Shown: positions 839 to 42,545 of the stretch, piece by piece
How positions within the stretch are numbered: the stretch's first letter is position 1
Layout of the letters: every line of letters begins with the position of its first letter
Sequence record: MK327936.1
DNA: 64,000 nucleotides
Direction: 5' to 3' (one strand)
Source of the DNA: Escherichia phage vB_EcoM_G2540
Notes under the pieces: generated by a model
The model's database searches: none
Told to the model about the DNA's origin: nothing
Seen by the model: the letters and a program-made list of their open reading frames with translations, nothing else
Translations under genes and position numbers: made by a program

Positions 839-1843
839 TTAGCTCACCAACTCAATCCAAGCTGGACGAAGTACATCTTGTACCATTTTAACTAATTCCT
901 TTTTAATCAAAGAAGGATTATCTGCTTGAGTTAGAGTAATACCTTCACGAGAAGTTTCTTCCAAAATATCTTGAACAGTTAGCCCCATCACCTTTCCAAA
1001 ATCTTTAGGACCAATTTCGCCAATTTTAGAAATAACGTTATTTACTCGGTTCAGTGTAACGTAACAAGCTAAAATTCCCACCAATTTGTTATCAGCTTCT
1101 GATAGCTCAACTTTAGCTTTAATAGGCTTATCAGACTTTTTCTTTTCACTAAATTTGGAATTCTTGCATTTAATTGCTACACGATTTCCATTACGAAGCC
1201 AAGAAGGATAACAAGGTTTCAATACATATCCTTCAGCGGTAAATACTTCGCCTTTTGCTTCGGCATTCCAAACGCATTTATTTGCATCAACTAATCCAGC
1301 ATGGTCTACTGTAAAATTATAATCTTGGACGACAGAATCTAAATCATTTGGCAATTTAATAAGCTCTTCAAATTTACCGCGACCTAAAAGTTGAGCCATT
1401 TTAAATTTAAATGTATTGCAGAATGATTCCATCATATAATCGTCGACATAAGTCACATCACCACTTTCTGTAGTGACAATAATGTCAAATACATAAAAAT
1501 CTTTATCGCCATAATCGACATTCTTCTGAATGCCAGGTCCAGCGAATTCGCCAAAGACTTGATAAGATACAACCGCTGAAGTTTCCATAATATCTTGCAC
1601 TGCTTTAATGGAATCAGCGTAATTCTTTAGAATAATTTCATACCCAAAGAAATCTTCAGCAGGAAGAATAGGACCAGTACGTTTAGCGCAAGTCACTTTA
1701 TCACGCTCAATAATCAACGAGAAATTTGTGCCGTGAATCTTTTCACGAGCTACCCATTCGCCGCCAGTCAATCCCAAGCTGTAAAGTTTTTCAATAAATT
1801 TAGAGTTGTAATGATTTTCAAGACTGCTATACTTTTTAAACAT
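839..1843 (-). CDS. rnlB: RNA ligase 2 (Rnl2)
   Basis: 334 aa, same length as T4 Rnl2; N-terminal nucleotidyltransferase lysine motif EKIHGTNF (KxHG); synteny after gene 24. Confidence 0.85.
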
Positions 1844-1852
1844 AATTAATCC

Positions 1853-2131
1853 TCAAAATGTAATTTCTAACCAATCACCATCACGCTGATCACTATTGAC
1901 TTTAAAGCTAAATCCTTCTTTTCTAAGCCAATCACCAATTTCTTCAGTAATCAATTTATCGCGAGCAGTACAATAATAACTAAAATGTGTTTTACCTTGT
2001 TCAGCTGCTTTATTAGCAAGTTCCGAAAAATCTTTAATAAAACACTCTAGCTTAAACTGTTTACTTTTAAGTGCTTTTTCGCGTAATTGATTAGCAAAAG
2101 ATTCATTTTCATAAAGATCATACTGTTCCAT
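1853..2131 (-). CDS. Hypothetical protein (24.2-like position)
   Basis: 92-aa ORF tightly packed between rnlB and hoc on the coding strand. Confidence 0.45.
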   Translation of the reverse strand: MEQYDLYENESFANQLREKALKSKQFKLECFIKDFSELANKAAEQGKTHFSYYCTARDKLITEEIGDWLRKEGFSFKVNSDQRDGDWLEITF

Positions 2132-2333
2132 TTTTCACCTTTTTATTGATATGTCTTTTTCTATAGACAACTTTTTCTCGAGTTTCAAACTTATTCTTAG
2201 CAGTCATAGCTCGAGCCCATAATACAGCTACTTCTTTCGCCTGTAAGTTTAATTCACGAGCAATTTCAATGAATGACTTTCCAGACTCATGAAGAGTAAA
2301 CACCACAACCTCAGTTCTCATAATCAATCTCAT
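2118..2333 (-). CDS. Hypothetical protein (24.3-like position)
   Basis: 71-aa ORF, overlaps downstream ORF by 14 nt in typical T4 fashion. Confidence 0.4.
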   Translation of the reverse strand: MRLIMRTEVVVFTLHESGKSFIEIARELNLQAKEVAVLWARAMTAKNKFETREKVVYRKRHINKKVKNGTV

Positions 2334-34252: not shown

Positions 34253-36516
34253 TACAATTTACACGCTGCGCAATCATCGGCTTTTGGAGTTTCTATTTCA
34301 TAATCATCAGTACCGGAACCATCACGAGTATTATGATAATAGAAATTTTTTCCGCCAAAATACCAGAAATACAAAAGGTCATCAATCATTATTGACATTG
34401 GAACCTTTCCTTTTGGAAAAATCTGCGGGTCATAGTATGTATTTGCTGAAGCTGATTGACATACCCATTTCAACATAATAGCTACCTGCGTAAGATAAGG
34501 TTTATTACCTTTCTTAGCTAATTTCCACGTATAATCATATAAGTCTATGTTATGCTCAATATTGGGCACGACTTGATTAAAGGAACCCTCTTTTGATTCT
34601 TTAACAGAGACTGGTCCACGTGGAGGCTCGATACCGTTTGTACTGTTAGAAACTTGGGAAGATGACTCACATGGCATAAGTGCTGATAATGTGCTATTAC
34701 GGATGCCAAAGAGCTTAAGGTCTTCCCGCAGCGACGACCAGTCACAAACGTATTTTGGAGCTGCGATTTGGTCAATCTTTTTATTGTACCAGTCGATAGG
34801 TAATTCGCCTCGAGACCAACGAGTGTCTGAATAATATTCGCAAGGTCCTTTTTCTTTGGCGAGCTTAATGGATGCTTTAATGAGTCCATACTGTAATCTC
34901 TCAAATAGTTCATGTGTTAAATCGTTAGCATCTTCATAAGAAGCAAAGTTACTTGCCAGCCAAGCCGCATAGTTAGTAACACCTACACCGAGGTTACGAC
35001 GCTTTTTAGCTTTTTCTGCTTCAGGAACTGGATATCCTTGGTAATCCAAAAGATTATCAAGAGCACGAACTTGAACTTCTGCCAATTCATTAATTTTATC
35101 TTGGTCTTGCCAGTCAAAATTATCTAATACGAATGCAGAGAGAGTACACAATCCAATTTCAGCATCAGGACTATTCACATCATTTGTTGGAATAGCAATT
35201 TCACAGCACAAGTTACTCTGACGAATAGGTGCCTTTTCACGAATAAACGGAGTGTAGTTATTCGTATTATCAATGAACTGCACATAAATCCTTGCTGTTC
35301 CTGAACGTTCAGTCATGAGCAATTCAAATAGTTCACGGGCTTTAATACGCTTTTTACGAATATTAGGGTCTTTTTCTGCTGCTTCGTATAATTCACGGAA
35401 ACGGTCTTGGTCTTTAAAATAAGAATAATAAAGCTCGCCACCCATTTCATGCGGACTGAACAAAGTAATGTAATCGTTCTTTCCAAAACGTTCCATCATT
35501 AGGTCATTCAGTTGAACACCATAATCCATATGACGAATGCGGTTTTCTTCTACGCCTTTGTTATTTTTCAAAACGAGAAGATTTTCAACTTCCAAATGCC
35601 AAATAGGATAATAAGCAGTAGCAGCGCCGCCACGAATTCCACCCTGTGAACATGATTTAACTGCAGTCTGAAAATGTTTCCAAAAAGGAATAACACCAGT
35701 ATGGCGTACTTCACCCATGCCAATCTTAGAACCTTCAGCACGAATCATACCAACGTTAATACCAATTCCAGCGCGTTTAGAGATATATTCAACAATTGAA
35801 GCGGAAGCCTTATTGATAGACTTCAATGAATCTCCTGCCTCAATAACAACACATGAACTAAACTGTCGAGTCGGAGTACGGCAACCAGCCATAATAGGAG
35901 TTGGCAATGAAATCTGTCGAGTAGATACTGCTTCATAAAAACGGATAACATGTTTTAATCTATCAACAGGTTCATCTTGATGCAATGCCATTCCAATAGC
36001 CATAAATGCAAACTGTGGAGTTTCATAAATTTGACCAGTGGTTTTATCTTTAACTAGATATTTTTCTTTTAATTGCATCGCCCCGGAATAAGTAAATTCC
36101 ATATCCCGTTCGTGCTTAATTTTTGATTCTAAAAATGTAATTTCTTCTGCTGAATATTTTGACAATAATTCAGGGTCATATTTACCTTCATTTACGCAGT
36201 AAGAAATATGGTCAATAAATGAACGTGGTTCATACTGCCCATAAACATGCTTACGAAGAGCAAACATTAAACAGCGGGCAGCTACATATTGGTAATCAGG
36301 CTCTTCAACCGAAATAGAATTCGCAGCAGCCTTAATGACAATAGTCTGAATATCATCAGTTGTCATTCCATCACGGAGATAAGATTTAATGTTTTCATAT
36401 AATTCATAAGGATCTACTGATGTTCCTTCAGCTGCCCAAGATAAAACTTTAATAATTTTTTGTGGGTCAAAGCTCTGAGAAACACCACTACTTTTGATAA
36501 CATTAATTAATTGCAT
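34252..36516 (-). CDS. nrdA: Ribonucleotide reductase large subunit
   Basis: 754 aa as T4 NrdA; active-site motif SNLCCEI. Confidence 0.9.
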   Translation of the reverse strand: MQLINVIKSSGVSQSFDPQKIIKVLSWAAEGTSVDPYELYENIKSYLRDGMTTDDIQTIVIKAAANSISVEEPDYQYVAARCLMFALRKHVYGQYEPRSFIDHISYCVNEGKYDPELLSKYSAEEITFLESKIKHERDMEFTYSGAMQLKEKYLVKDKTTGQIYETPQFAFMAIGMALHQDEPVDRLKHVIRFYEAVSTRQISLPTPIMAGCRTPTRQFSSCVVIEAGDSLKSINKASASIVEYISKRAGIGINVGMIRAEGSKIGMGEVRHTGVIPFWKHFQTAVKSCSQGGIRGGAATAYYPIWHLEVENLLVLKNNKGVEENRIRHMDYGVQLNDLMMERFGKNDYITLFSPHEMGGELYYSYFKDQDRFRELYEAAEKDPNIRKKRIKARELFELLMTERSGTARIYVQFIDNTNNYTPFIREKAPIRQSNLCCEIAIPTNDVNSPDAEIGLCTLSAFVLDNFDWQDQDKINELAEVQVRALDNLLDYQGYPVPEAEKAKKRRNLGVGVTNYAAWLASNFASYEDANDLTHELFERLQYGLIKASIKLAKEKGPCEYYSDTRWSRGELPIDWYNKKIDQIAAPKYVCDWSSLREDLKLFGIRNSTLSALMPCESSSQVSNSTNGIEPPRGPVSVKESKEGSFNQVVPNIEHNIDLYDYTWKLAKKGNKPYLTQVAIMLKWVCQSASANTYYDPQIFPKGKVPMSIMIDDLLYFWYFGGKNFYYHNTRDGSGTDDYEIETPKADDCAACKL

Positions 36517-36833
36517 AAGTCCTCAACTTGAAAATCGTCTTTAAACAATCGGTTAACTATATGAGCTATTATATCACCATGACACGGCTTTGGTTTACAT
36601 GTGCATCCTAGCCTCATTCCACGTAAAGGCTCTAAATGTGCTTTAGTTATTTCTCCGGATTTAATTCGACGTATAAAATCTTTTTTGAATAATTCAATGG
36701 CAGCCTCCCGGCTGCCAGCATCTTTACCGACGTAATTTCCCCAAAATGTACCGCGGTGAATATTAACATCAAAGTCGGATTTGTATTTATTCACTACCCG
36801 GCATAGACGGCCCGGTTGGTAATAATTCTTCAT
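36507..36833 (-). CDS. Hypothetical protein (nrdA.1-like), Cys/His-rich
   Basis: 108-aa ORF between td and nrdA. Confidence 0.45.
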
Positions 36834-37062
36834 ATTGTTTTTCCGTTAAAACAGTAATATCGTAGTAACAGTCAGAAGAAGTTTTAACTGTGGAAATTTT
36901 ATTATCAAAATACTCACGAGTCATTTTATGAGTATAATATTTTTTGCCATAAATGATAATAGGCTGATTTGGTCCTGGAACTTCTAACTCGCTTGGGTTA
37001 GGAAGTGTAAAAAGAACAACGTCAGAAGTATCTTTAAATCGTAAAATCATAAATCCTCGCAA
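36787..37062 (-). CDS. Hypothetical protein (nrdA.2-like)
   Basis: 91-aa ORF between td and nrdA. Confidence 0.45.
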
Positions 37063-37070
37063 TAATAAAA

Positions 37071-37382
37071 TTATACCGCCATCTTTCCTTTAATTGGCGG
37101 GTGAGATACATAGTCGTTAAGAACAAAATTATGCGGCTTTGCGAATTGACTCAACCAAAATACCTGTGATTCTGTGTCCCATTCATCAAATTCATCTGGG
37201 AATTTTAATTGTAATTCGCATAAATCCATAGGTTCACGACGCAAAATTTCTTTACATTGTTCTACGTGATTCATATAGATATGAGTATTACCGCCAGAAA
37301 ATATCAAATCTCCCGGAATAAGATTACATATCTTAGCTACAATATGAACTAACGTAGCATATGATGCAATATTAAACGGTAG
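37071..37382 (-). CDS. td: Thymidylate synthase, exon 2
   Basis: Encodes [13 protein letters not shown]...; the ATG at 37385-37383 is the intron 3' end (...CATAATG). Confidence 0.85.
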
Positions 37383-38398
37383 CATTATGTTCAGATAAGG
37401 TCGTTAATCTTACCCCGGAATTATATCCAGCTACATGTCACCATGCAGAGCAGACTATATCTCCAACTTGTTAAAGCAAGTTGTCTATCGTTTCGAGTCA
37501 CTTGACCCTACTCCCCAAAGGGATAGTCGTTAGGCATTTATGTAGAACCAATTCCATTTATCAGATTTTACACGATAAGTAACTAATCCAGACGAAATTT
37601 TAAAATGTCTAGCTGCATCTGCTGCACATTCAAAAATAACCCCATCACATGAAATCTTTTTAATATTACTAGGCTTTTTACCTTTCATCTTTTCTGATAT
37701 TTTAGATTTAGTTATGTCTGAATGCTTATGATTAAAGAATGAATTATTTTCACCTGAACGATTTCTGCATTTACTACAAGTATAAGCAGAAGTTTGTATG
37801 CGAACACCGCACTTACAAAACTTATGGGTTTCTGGATTCCAACGCCCATTTTTACTTCCGGGTTTACTGTAAAGAGCTTTCCGACCATCAGGTCCAAGTT
37901 TAAGCATCTTAGCTTTAACAGTTTCAGAACGTTTCTTAATAATTTCTTCTTTTAATGGATGCGTAGAACATGTATCACCAAACGTTGCATCAGCAATATT
38001 GTATCCATTAATTTTAGAATTAAGCTCTTTAATCCAAAAATTTTCTCGTTCAATAATCAAATCTTTCTCATATGGAATTTCTTCCAAAATAGAACATTCA
38101 AACACATTACCATGTTTGTTAAAAGACCTCTGAAGTTTTATAGAAGAATGGCATCCTTTTTCTAAATCTTTAAAATGCCTCTTCCATCTCTTTTCAAAAT
38201 CTTTAGCACTTCCTACATATACTTTATTGTTTAAAGTATTTTTAATCTGATAAATTCCGCTTTTCATAAATACCTCTTTGAATATAGAAGTATTTATTAA
38301 AGGGCAGTCCTACAATTTAGCACGGGATTGTCTACTAGAGAGTTTCCCCGTTTAGATAGATTACAAGTATAAGTCACCTTATACTCAGGCCTCAATTA
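37383..38398 (-). mobile_element. Group I self-splicing intron in td, carrying I-TevI
   Basis: 1016 nt; 5' end TAATTGAGGCCTGAGTATAAGGTGACTTATACTTG... and 3' end ...CTGAACATAATG match the T4 td intron as I recall it. Confidence 0.85.
37530..38267 (-). CDS. I-TevI: Intron-encoded GIY-YIG homing endonuclease I-TevI
   Basis: 245 aa; N-terminal GIY-YIG (SGIYQIKN...KVYVGSA); zinc finger and C-terminal DNA-binding region; inside the td intron. Confidence 0.9.
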   Translation of the reverse strand: MKSGIYQIKNTLNNKVYVGSAKDFEKRWKRHFKDLEKGCHSSIKLQRSFNKHGNVFECSILEEIPYEKDLIIERENFWIKELNSKINGYNIADATFGDTCSTHPLKEEIIKKRSETVKAKMLKLGPDGRKALYSKPGSKNGRWNPETHKFCKCGVRIQTSAYTCSKCRNRSGENNSFFNHKHSDITKSKISEKMKGKKPSNIKKISCDGVIFECAADAARHFKISSGLVTYRVKSDKWNWFYINA

Positions 38399-38947
38399 AC
38401 CCAAGAAAACATCTACCGAACGTTGATACCACTGAAGGTCAAGGTATCCATTACGAACATTAAATTGATAGAACATATGACAAGGAGGTAATGCCATATA
38501 TTTAAGTTCAGCTGGATTCCATGCTGAAACAATTTGACGCCTATCATTTGGCAGTTTTTTAATACGATCAATAACTTCTATAATTTGGTCTACACCACCA
38601 AAATCACGCCACTGTTTTCCATAAATTGGACCAAGTTCACCGCTATGGTATCCTAAATCTTTTGCTTGATTTTCGTAATTTTCATCCCAAACTGTTTTGC
38701 CTTGGATTAACGAATCATGTTGAATTAATCGCAAATCATTGACATTTGTGCTTCCCGATAAAAACCATAGAAGCTCAGCAATACATGCATTCCACGCAAG
38801 CTTCTTAGTTGTTACCGCAGGAAAACCTTTAGTTAAATCCCAGCGTAATTTAGTACCGAACAAAGCAATTGTTCCTGTGCCTGTTCGGTCATCGGTTTCA
38901 TAGCCATTTTCAAAAATGTCTTTAATTAAATCTTGGTATTGTTTCAT
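38399..38947 (-). CDS. td: Thymidylate synthase, exon 1
   Basis: 183 codons ending ...QRSVDVFLG, then intron; exon1+exon2 = 286 aa. Confidence 0.85.
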
Positions 38948-38991
38948 TTAGTACCTTATATAAATTATAATACATTTTATGAAGCTAATAA

Positions 38992-39339
38992 TCAATACGG
39001 TTTAGCATCAAATTTTCTTTCAATTTCAGGCGTAAAATACAATTCTTTACCACGCTTGGAAAAGCGACCAATAATATGATAATTATTCTCATCAAACGTG
39101 ATATTGCCGATATCCATAGCTTTCAACCAAATATCGATATTTCTGTCAAGCTTTATATCAAAATTCCAATACGGAGAACTATTACCGAAAATACTGCAAG
39201 CGGATTCAGTGAAACAACTGCTATAAATTTTGTCTTTAGGAACTACTAATTGATAGACGCCTTTAATAAACTGAGGACCCTGCCATTTTGGTTGTTTCGC
39301 GTCTTTTTCTAATAGAATAGGGTAATAATTAAAATTCAT
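38992..39339 (-). CDS. Hypothetical protein, 115 aa, inserted between frd and td
   Basis: ATG-initiated ORF with its own weak SD; no motif I recognise. Confidence 0.5.
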   Translation of the reverse strand: MNFNYYPILLEKDAKQPKWQGPQFIKGVYQLVVPKDKIYSSCFTESACSIFGNSSPYWNFDIKLDRNIDIWLKAMDIGNITFDENNYHIIGRFSKRGKELYFTPEIERKFDAKPY

Positions 39340-39358
39340 ATTTTCCGCCAGTGTTATT

Positions 39359-40188
<830 letters not shown>

Positions 40189-40199
40189 ATTATCTCCTA

Positions 40200-40532
40200 T
40201 TAAAAAGGATCAGGAACATATCCACTAGCTTTAATCATTTTAACTAATGTTACCATTCCTTTGTTAACTGCTTGTGAGATTTCATCAAAAACTTCATCAT
40301 TAAAAAGTTCTAGCACACCCTTCTGAACTTTTAATTTACAGCCAACAATTTCGTCATCGCCTATAGTAAATTCATTACCGCCAATTCCACCGAAAAACTT
40401 AATTACACCAGTTAACTGTCTTCCACGAGAATATGGGTCATGTGATAAAGTAATATGAGTCACCCCAGGTACAGTTTTAAATTGACAGCGAATGTTTACT
40501 TGAGAAATTCCAGTTACATGAATGTCAGACAT
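40200..40532 (-). CDS. Hypothetical protein, 110 aa
   Basis: ORF in 32-frd interval. Confidence 0.45.
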   Translation of the reverse strand: MSDIHVTGISQVNIRCQFKTVPGVTHITLSHDPYSRGRQLTGVIKFFGGIGGNEFTIGDDEIVGCKLKVQKGVLELFNDEVFDEISQAVNKGMVTLVKMIKASGYVPDPF

Positions 40533-41639: not shown

Positions 41640-42545
41640 TTAAAGGTCATTCAAAAGGTCATCCAGGTCCGTGTCATCAGCACTAGATGAACTGCCAGAG
41701 CTTGAGCTCATAAAATCATCTTCAGTTTTTGTTTTGAAGTCATCAACATTGAATGCATCCAAATCATCAGCAACTTTATCAGCTTTCTTAGCGGCAGTTG
41801 CTGCGGCACCGCCCATCACAGCAGTTCCCATGACTTGACCGAATTTAGTGCTCAGTTCTTCAAATGATTTGAATTTATCTTTAGAAGTCATTTCAGAAAG
41901 GTCAACCATTTGTTCGAACAGTTCTTTCTGGAAAGATTCATCATCAATGTTTGGAATCGCAGATTGATTCAGGAATTTAGATTCGTCGTAGTTACTAAAT
42001 CCAGAAACCTGTTTAACTTTCAGTACAAAGTTAGCACCTTCCCACGGACAAGTTACATCAACTGGAGTTTCACCCATTTCAACATCAACCGCAATCATTG
42101 CATTGATTTTATCCCAGATTTTCTTACCAAAACGGTATTTAAATACTTTACCTTCATTTTCTGGAGCAGCTGGGTCTTTTACAACAAGAATGTTAGCCCA
42201 GTAAGAAGTTTTACGTTTAACAAGACTGTACTCTTTATTGTCAGTGTTGTACAGATCATTTTTACTGATGTATTGACATACTGGGCAAGAATCGTAATCA
42301 CCATGGGTAGATGAACATGTTTCAATATACCATTTACCATTTTTCTTGAAACCGTGATTTACAAGAATTGCGAATGGTGCTTGTTCATCATTTTTAGACG
42401 GAAGAAAACGAATTACTGCTTGACCGTTACCCGCATTATCGAGTTTCAGTTTCCACTCGCCTTTATCTTCAGAAGAAAAACCTTTATTGCCATTCAGTTT
42501 AGCCATTTGTGCAGCAAGTTCAGCAGTAGATTTACGTTTAAACAT
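41640..42545 (-). CDS. 32: Single-stranded DNA-binding protein gp32
   Basis: 301 aa as T4 gp32; zinc motif [14 protein letters not shown]; acidic Ser/Asp-rich C-terminal tail. Confidence 0.95.

Follow-up and report, generated by a model that had tools for sequence, protein, structure and literature searches.

Escherichia phage vB_EcoM_G2540 (MK327936.1) carries a separate ORF of 115 aa between frd, encoding dihydrofolate reductase, and td, encoding thymidylate synthase. In phage T4 no gene separates the two. The locus raises the question of whether this ORF is a recent insertion into a nucleotide-metabolism operon, as an earlier note on this DNA proposed, or a resident gene that T4 has lost, and also that of what its product might do.

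Layout of the frd-td interval and coding status of the ORF

The stretch of DNA analyzed (the window, 64,000 nucleotides) is a segment of a Tequatrovirus (T4-like) genome with its early genes on the minus strand. The gene order on that strand is gene 32 (41640..42545, from the ORF list), frd.3, frd.2, frd.1, frd, the 115-aa ORF, td exon 1, an intron with I-TevI and td exon 2. The ORF spans 38992..39339 (minus strand), from ATG to TGA, and encodes a protein that begins MNFNYYPILLEKDAKQPKWQGPQF and ends in DAKPY. Both the ORF list and the sequence bear out the earlier description of a distinct reading frame between the two genes.

Its upstream neighbour, frd, lies at 39359..39940 (minus strand), with the start (MIKLVF...) assigned by homology to T4 Frd. 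Mechanical ORF listing carries this frame to an upstream ATG at 39970 (203 aa), but the start at 39940 is favoured by the T4 homology and lies next to 39943, where the frd.1 homologue stops. Also, a patch of about 100 nt within frd (approximately 39540-39640) is only 55-62% identical to T6 or Ge15, as compared to 82-88% in the adjacent 100 nt and mostly 93-99% elsewhere outside the patch, which suggests a mosaic or hypervariable segment within the DHFR sequence. Downstream, td exon 1 occupies about 38399..38947 (minus strand), its end being placed by homology to T4, and its reading frame closes at a TAA where the intron begins. The intron (37386-38398) contains an ORF for a 245-aa I-TevI-like GIY-YIG endonuclease (37530-38267, minus strand), as in T4; in T2 and T2H, td is uninterrupted beside the same 115-aa gene. 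A search of positions 36500-40500 with Rfam at the gathering threshold returned no match, including none to a group I intron.

The TGA of frd and the ATG of the ORF are separated by 19 nt (39340..39358, minus strand), containing the purine-rich, Shine-Dalgarno-like motif GGCGGA (39344-39349) 4 nt before the start codon. A second spacer of 44 nt (38948..38991, minus strand) separates the TGA of the ORF from the td ATG (38945-38947) and contains AAGG (38954-38957), 6 nt upstream of that ATG, in agreement with the td-specific Shine-Dalgarno sequence reported earlier. This second spacer exists in a long form of 44 nt (window, T6) and a short form of 15 nt (Ge15 and Mosigvirus SF). The additional 29 nt or so of the long form carry GCTTCA-N12-TAATTT (38962-38985, minus strand), which we take to fit the pattern of MotA-dependent middle promoters of T4, as a match to the consensus only. 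The window contains 21 matches to a loose version of the MotA-box pattern, 38962-38985 included, as against 9.5 +/- 3.4 expected, and most of them lie on the strand of the early genes. If real, this putative site would give td a middle promoter of its own that T4 lacks. The predicted RNA fold of the same spacer revealed no significant structure (z=0.12). The first spacer, of about 20 nt in Tequatrovirus, is missing in Mosigvirus SF, whose ORF starts with an ATG that overlaps the TGA of frd; overlaps of 1-23 nt between the two genes are also seen in most of the other genera examined.

The 115-aa protein is 100% identical to proteins of T2, RB14, AR1, PP01 and RB3. Its gene is named td.1 ("td.1, hypothetical protein Td.1") in the T2H record AY262132.2 (protein ABI48932.1), the name used hereafter, and appears elsewhere as RB32ORF229c (RB14 and RB51 records), Shfl2p237 and ar1_242 (AR1). 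The absence of a recognisable motif, claimed earlier from the sequence, was confirmed by scans with Pfam (no family at E<=1), NCBIfam and PADLOC (no match in either), the sole match being to PHROG 1928, of "unknown function" (E=8.4e-36, residues 4-111 aligned to positions 2-125 of the 126 in the profile). At E<=10, the Pfam, NCBIfam and PADLOC scans of 23 family members likewise gave no consistent match, and a profile search of PDB sequences returned nothing below E=0.04. In the literature searched for td.1, RB32ORF229c, phrog_1928 and frd-td, no paper or experiment on function was found; neither an accessory-gene screen (PMC12373910) nor a review of T4 mobile elements (PMC2988022) mentions td.1. 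In these respects, td.1 is an already annotated, widely distributed and ordinary hypothetical gene.

About three open stretches of at least 115 codons are expected by chance in the six frames of a window with 36% GC, and ORF length alone is weak evidence for coding. This expectation, together with the T2 record AY310907.2, in which td.1 is present and left unannotated, could be taken to favour a non-coding spacer that lies open by chance. Yet td.1 differs from its T6 and Ge15 counterparts by 16 and 17 synonymous changes, respectively, and by no non-synonymous change in either case. Even against Mosigvirus SF, 29 synonymous changes accompany only 9 non-synonymous ones (dN/dS 0.046, as compared to about 0.2 for frd and 0.04-0.09 for td). 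Maintenance of the protein family across genera and a confident AF2 fold (pLDDT 92) also argue against a chance frame, a reading that the selection and homology data refute, leaving it a practically negligible probability, and that was dropped. Thus td.1 is a genuine protein-coding gene under very strong purifying selection, a status settled by selection and homology and not by length. In two IMG/VR Tequatrovirus contigs (loci L013 and L014), a 2-nt difference near the stop codon gives the protein a slightly longer end in place of ...AKPY; the final residues are therefore not under constraint.

Distribution of td.1 and origin of the T4 junction

Matches to the Td.1 protein were recovered by tblastn in 580 phage records, 362 of them at 90% amino acid identity or more, including T2, T6, RB14, RB51, RB3 and AR1. 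Among the Tequatrovirus records that match this junction, td.1 is present in about 358 of 536, and is the majority state of the genus. Outside the genus, at least seven Tevenvirinae genera or lineages, namely Kanagawavirus (Entb_45, PEi26), Jiaodavirus, Roskildevirus, Moonvirus, Winklervirus, Gelderlandvirus and a Slopek-like Klebsiella phage, have a homologue of 26-47% identity immediately downstream of frd, and an uncultured phage contig has a 63% identical copy in the same position. The same-strand order frd, td.1, td is found in the window and in loci L003-L010 and L025-L031; no td.1 paralogue was found elsewhere in the window. Between genera, identity to the window proteins is 32-47% for Td.1, 46-55% for Frd and 77-86% for Td, the divergence of Td.1 roughly tracking that of Frd. 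Taken together, sequence comparisons point to td.1 as an old resident of the frd-td-nrdA nucleotide-synthesis cluster of the Tevenvirinae.

In T4 itself (locus L001), frd occupies 1745..2326 and td starts at 1748, which gives the two genes a 4-nt overlap, ATGA; the earlier note had correctly stated that they overlap. When the whole T4 genome was searched in six frames with profiles, no homologue of td.1 or of its paralogue described below was recovered, either at the junction or anywhere else (best E=0.12). In the window, a 9-nt direct repeat, TAAATGAAA, occurs once across the frd stop codon (39357..39365, minus strand) and once across the td start codon (38942..38950, minus strand), the latter copy being present in all inspected Tequatrovirus junctions of the td.1 type. 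Once the 415 bp separating these copies are removed, what remains is exactly the T4 junction, GTATATAAATGAAACAATACC. A 37-mer query, built so that only an intact T4-type frd/td junction could seed a match, found this junction in only 32 records, 31 of them without mismatch. About half of these are T4 itself, and the others are RB55, RB59, T4T, vB_EcoM_112, HY03, SG1, G28, F1, FN, JEP6, FL12, FL18 and G2133. In every one of the 32 the junction is the same, which indicates a single derived event.

Since td.1 stands at the same spot in most relatives of T4, it is T4 that lost the gene and not the window phage that gained it. In the T4 lineage, td.1 and its flanking spacers were lost through one 415-bp deletion between the 9-nt direct repeats, which joined the stop of frd directly to the start of td as ATGA. 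A deletion in T4 is supported by the frequency of the junction, the outgroups, the dS values, the composition and signals of the segment and the geometry of the repeats. Repeats of this kind are also compatible with insertion by microhomology, and the direction of the event is decided only by the outgroup and divergence data. Alignment of the junction with T4 and the other T-even phages upheld the earlier note in that T4 lacks the ORF, but the T4 state is a deletion rather than the ancestral arrangement.

The recent insertion first proposed would have placed a moron in an ancestral T4-like frd/td overlap, the 9-nt repeats being a target-site duplication. The repeats do flank the segment, direct frd/td junctions occur both in T4 and in most Mosigvirus genomes, and at the very border between frd and the ORF of Mosigvirus SF nucleotide identity jumps sharply, from about 60% to about 90%, indicating that this lineage acquired the gene laterally. 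Against an insertion in Tequatrovirus stand the homologues at the same position in at least eight other Tevenvirinae lineages, diverged in parallel with Frd, and a synonymous divergence from T6 that equals that of the flanking genes (dS of 0.31 for td.1, 0.27 for frd and 0.29 for td). In addition, the GC content of td.1 (0.328) falls inside the 5-95% range of the window, and a scan for sigma-70 promoters and terminators stayed at background level, with none framing td.1. The near-uniform junction of the 32 T4-type records also speaks for a derived state in T4. Own promoter and terminator, atypical composition and patchy presence, the usual marks of a moron, are lacking in td.1, which at least nine genera carry at one and the same site. 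Recent insertion is largely refuted for Tequatrovirus and is considered highly improbable, whereas the identity and history of td.1 given here, including its loss from T4, are held with high confidence.

A polymorphic slot between frd and td

The interval is nevertheless variable, and on this point the earlier suggestion of a cargo location was partly right: the slot is polymorphic and td.1 has been exchanged into some Mosigvirus genomes, although the gene does not have the properties of a moron. In Tequatrovirus, about two thirds of the records carry td.1, about a quarter an unrelated ORF of 68 aa and about 6% nothing. The 68-aa ORF (MSNKLKVKDVPNAMALFICRQMHQG...) takes the place of td.1 in approximately 135 Tequatrovirus records; in Escherichia phage AUBRB02 (locus L002, 1748-1954) it overlaps the stop and start codons of both neighbours, and the window has no copy. 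Kanagawavirus and Slopek-like phages have it as well, there beside td.1, and Phapecoctavirus has a version with about 43% identity; Pfam and NCBIfam give no match for it.

Most genera other than Tequatrovirus harbor a tandem paralogue of td.1 in the frd-td gap (paralogue B, 115-144 aa; loci L004-L010 and L031), absent from the window and from Tequatrovirus. Its carriers include Moonvirus, Winklervirus, Gelderlandvirus, Kanagawavirus, Roskildevirus and Slopek-like phages (e.g. CPT_Moon253 of Moon and ORF-252 of PEi26). The paralogy of td.1 and B is supported by profile comparison (hhalign probability 99.5%, E=2e-22) and by a structural match in BFVD. In phage Cronus the order is reversed, with paralogue B preceding the td.1 homologue.

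Most Mosigvirus genomes have a direct frd-td junction and no td.1. Two of them, SF (locus L025, 1509-1856) and NHEP29 (locus L027), carry a td.1 that is 94% identical in amino acids and 89% in nucleotides to that of Tequatrovirus, next to a frd gene with only about 60% identity, the step in identity falling exactly at the frd/td.1 border. Consistently, dS with respect to Mosigvirus SF is 0.70 for td.1 as compared to 1.4-2.2 for its flanks. This pattern indicates that td.1 moved by recombination between genera, probably from Tequatrovirus, into a minority of Mosigvirus genomes, and td.1 is best described as an old gene that is exchangeable by homologous recombination.

Family, fold and possible role of Td.1

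In order to gain insight into the family, an exhaustive, filter-free profile search of 1.8 billion representatives was examined. It gave 22 hits, about 20 of them true members of 95-119 aa; the two long hits (P0021 and P0023) proved to be repeat artefacts. A combined profile of td.1 and paralogue B retrieved only single-domain "hypothetical" proteins, with no fusion and no Pfam domain. In an alignment of 23 sequences, Q16, W19, G27, G91, K95 and G97 are invariant and L9, Y29, N79, F93 and F102 nearly so, defining the motifs Q-x-K-W, (K/H)G(I/V)Y-x-L and G-R-F-x-K-x-G. The family is mildly basic (pI 6.8-9.4), and its alignment holds no conserved acidic or His catalytic set. This suggests that the td.1 product may be a binding protein rather than an enzyme.

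The second of these motifs recalls the name of a nuclease family, and Td.1 could be imagined to be what is left, in degenerate form, of a GIY-YIG homing endonuclease that once stood free. Genes of the seg and mob type abound in T-even genomes, the locus adjoins intron-encoded I-TevI, and a "GIY"-like tripeptide (HGIYxL) is conserved in the family. Also, a homologue from a Klebsiella phage is labelled "putative homing endonuclease" in OR271596.1. That label is unsupported: none of the 23 members has a GIY-YIG or endonuclease match in Pfam, even at E<=10, BLASTP against the I-TevI of the same window gives E=2.7, and the Arg/Glu catalytic pair is not conserved. The strong purifying selection is unlike that of a decaying remnant, and the modelled beta-rich barrel has no GIY-YIG protein among its structural matches. 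Descent from such a nuclease is effectively refuted and carries only a very slight probability.

The AF2 model, computed from the 23-sequence alignment, is beta-rich (pLDDT 92, pTM 0.84), with elements in the order strand-strand-strand-helix-strand-strand. Strand 6-12 is followed by a long loop bearing Q16, K18 and W19, then by strand 27-34, short strands, a helix at 68-76 and a C-terminal hairpin (86-96/99-104) that carries GRFxKxG. Comparison with solved structures gave no significant match, the weak hits being mostly OB folds, and a search of BFVD found only uncharacterised proteins of T4-like phages. OB proteins dominate these weak hit lists, and nucleic-acid-binding domains with an OB fold (S1/cold-shock, SSB/RPA, telomere-end OB and HIN) resemble the model in predicted strand order, with a helix between the third and fourth main strands. 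Also, the conserved aromatic and basic residues of Td.1, W, Y, F, K and R, map to the loop after strand 1, to strand 2 and to the last hairpin, which correspond to the OB ligand face. With low confidence, Td.1 may be seen as an OB-like ligand-binding barrel, a lead rather than a classification.

On this basis, Td.1 would be a small soluble non-enzymatic protein with an OB-like beta-barrel, made along with DHFR from the same early/middle transcript, its start overlapping the frd stop in most genera. A face formed by Q16, K18, W19, Y29, (R92)-F93, K95 and G97 would bind a nucleic-acid or nucleotide-type ligand or a conserved partner protein, and Td.1 would act as a dispensable accessory factor of the deoxynucleotide-supply and replication machinery of the phage. 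This proposal stems from the OB-like order, the invariant position behind frd and the co-transcription with genes for dNTP synthesis. Start/stop overlaps with the upstream gene are common throughout T4-like genomes, and the overlap with frd thus says little about a specific link to DHFR. Because T4 and most Mosigvirus genomes lack td.1, any role in nucleotide synthesis would be non-essential. The mechanism, in which ligand, partner and physiological role are all inferred, is tentative, while the explanation as a whole, gene identity and history blended with mechanism, is considered reasonably probable.

Dispensability, a polymorphic slot and horizontal exchange would fit a host-interaction or anti-defence role equally well. 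Td.1 could be a counter-defence or host-takeover protein whose position beside frd is incidental, for instance one that sequesters a signalling or defence-related nucleotide or blocks a conserved host protein. Its small size, restriction to phages and dispensability in the laboratory, as seen in T4, are in line with such a role, as are the alternative cargo of the slot and the exchange of td.1 between genera. Conserved aromatic and basic residues with no catalytic ones, and extreme purifying selection, would likewise suit a protein whose target, be it a small molecule or a host protein, does not vary. However, Td.1 has no structural similarity to solved proteins, anti-defence proteins included, nor any match to known defence-system proteins, and literature support was not found. 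Direct inhibitors of variable defence proteins typically show accelerated evolution, which td.1 does not, and its synteny within a metabolic operon is stable across genera. A counter-defence or host-directed binder is an unlikely candidate in itself, though nearly as likely as the accessory-binder mechanism.

A broader and equally doubtful possibility is that Td.1 and its paralogue represent a small beta-barrel fold that is confined to phages and has no relative of solved structure, which would bind an invariant cellular or phage ligand and either adjust the supply of deoxynucleotides or counteract a host defence based on nucleotides. Candidate ligands would include nucleotides, folate-type cofactors, RNA and replication proteins. 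If so, T2, T6 and most field Tequatrovirus would possess a function that T4 does not. The remaining interest of td.1 lies in this tightly constrained orphan fold, absent from the model phage yet carried by T2, T6 and roughly two in three of the sequenced Tequatrovirus records, and constrained within the genus as tightly as thymidylate synthase. T4 is the reference for this phage group, and genes that it has lost are consequently under-studied in a systematic way, td.1 being one of them. Should Td.1 act on nucleotide metabolism or host defence, part of the phenotypic difference between T4 and other T-even phages would be explained. For genome scanning, the lesson is that a gene that is extra relative to T4 has not necessarily been inserted.

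In comparison with known systems, the T4 ATGA junction has the same flanking genes as the window but, unlike the window, has neither td.1 nor the two spacers, and with them neither the Shine-Dalgarno-like motif specific to td nor the MotA-box-like site. Paralogue B shares with Td.1 the slot and the motifs QKKW, HG(I/L)Y and GRFxKxGxxxxF, and differs in an insert of about 20 residues after QKKW (ALVIDGxxPTIExYKRNPxKY) that Td.1 does not have. The closest counterpart is Td.1 of T2H, with its family PHROG 1928, which corresponds to the same gene, in the same position between frd and td and of the same length, with no material difference.
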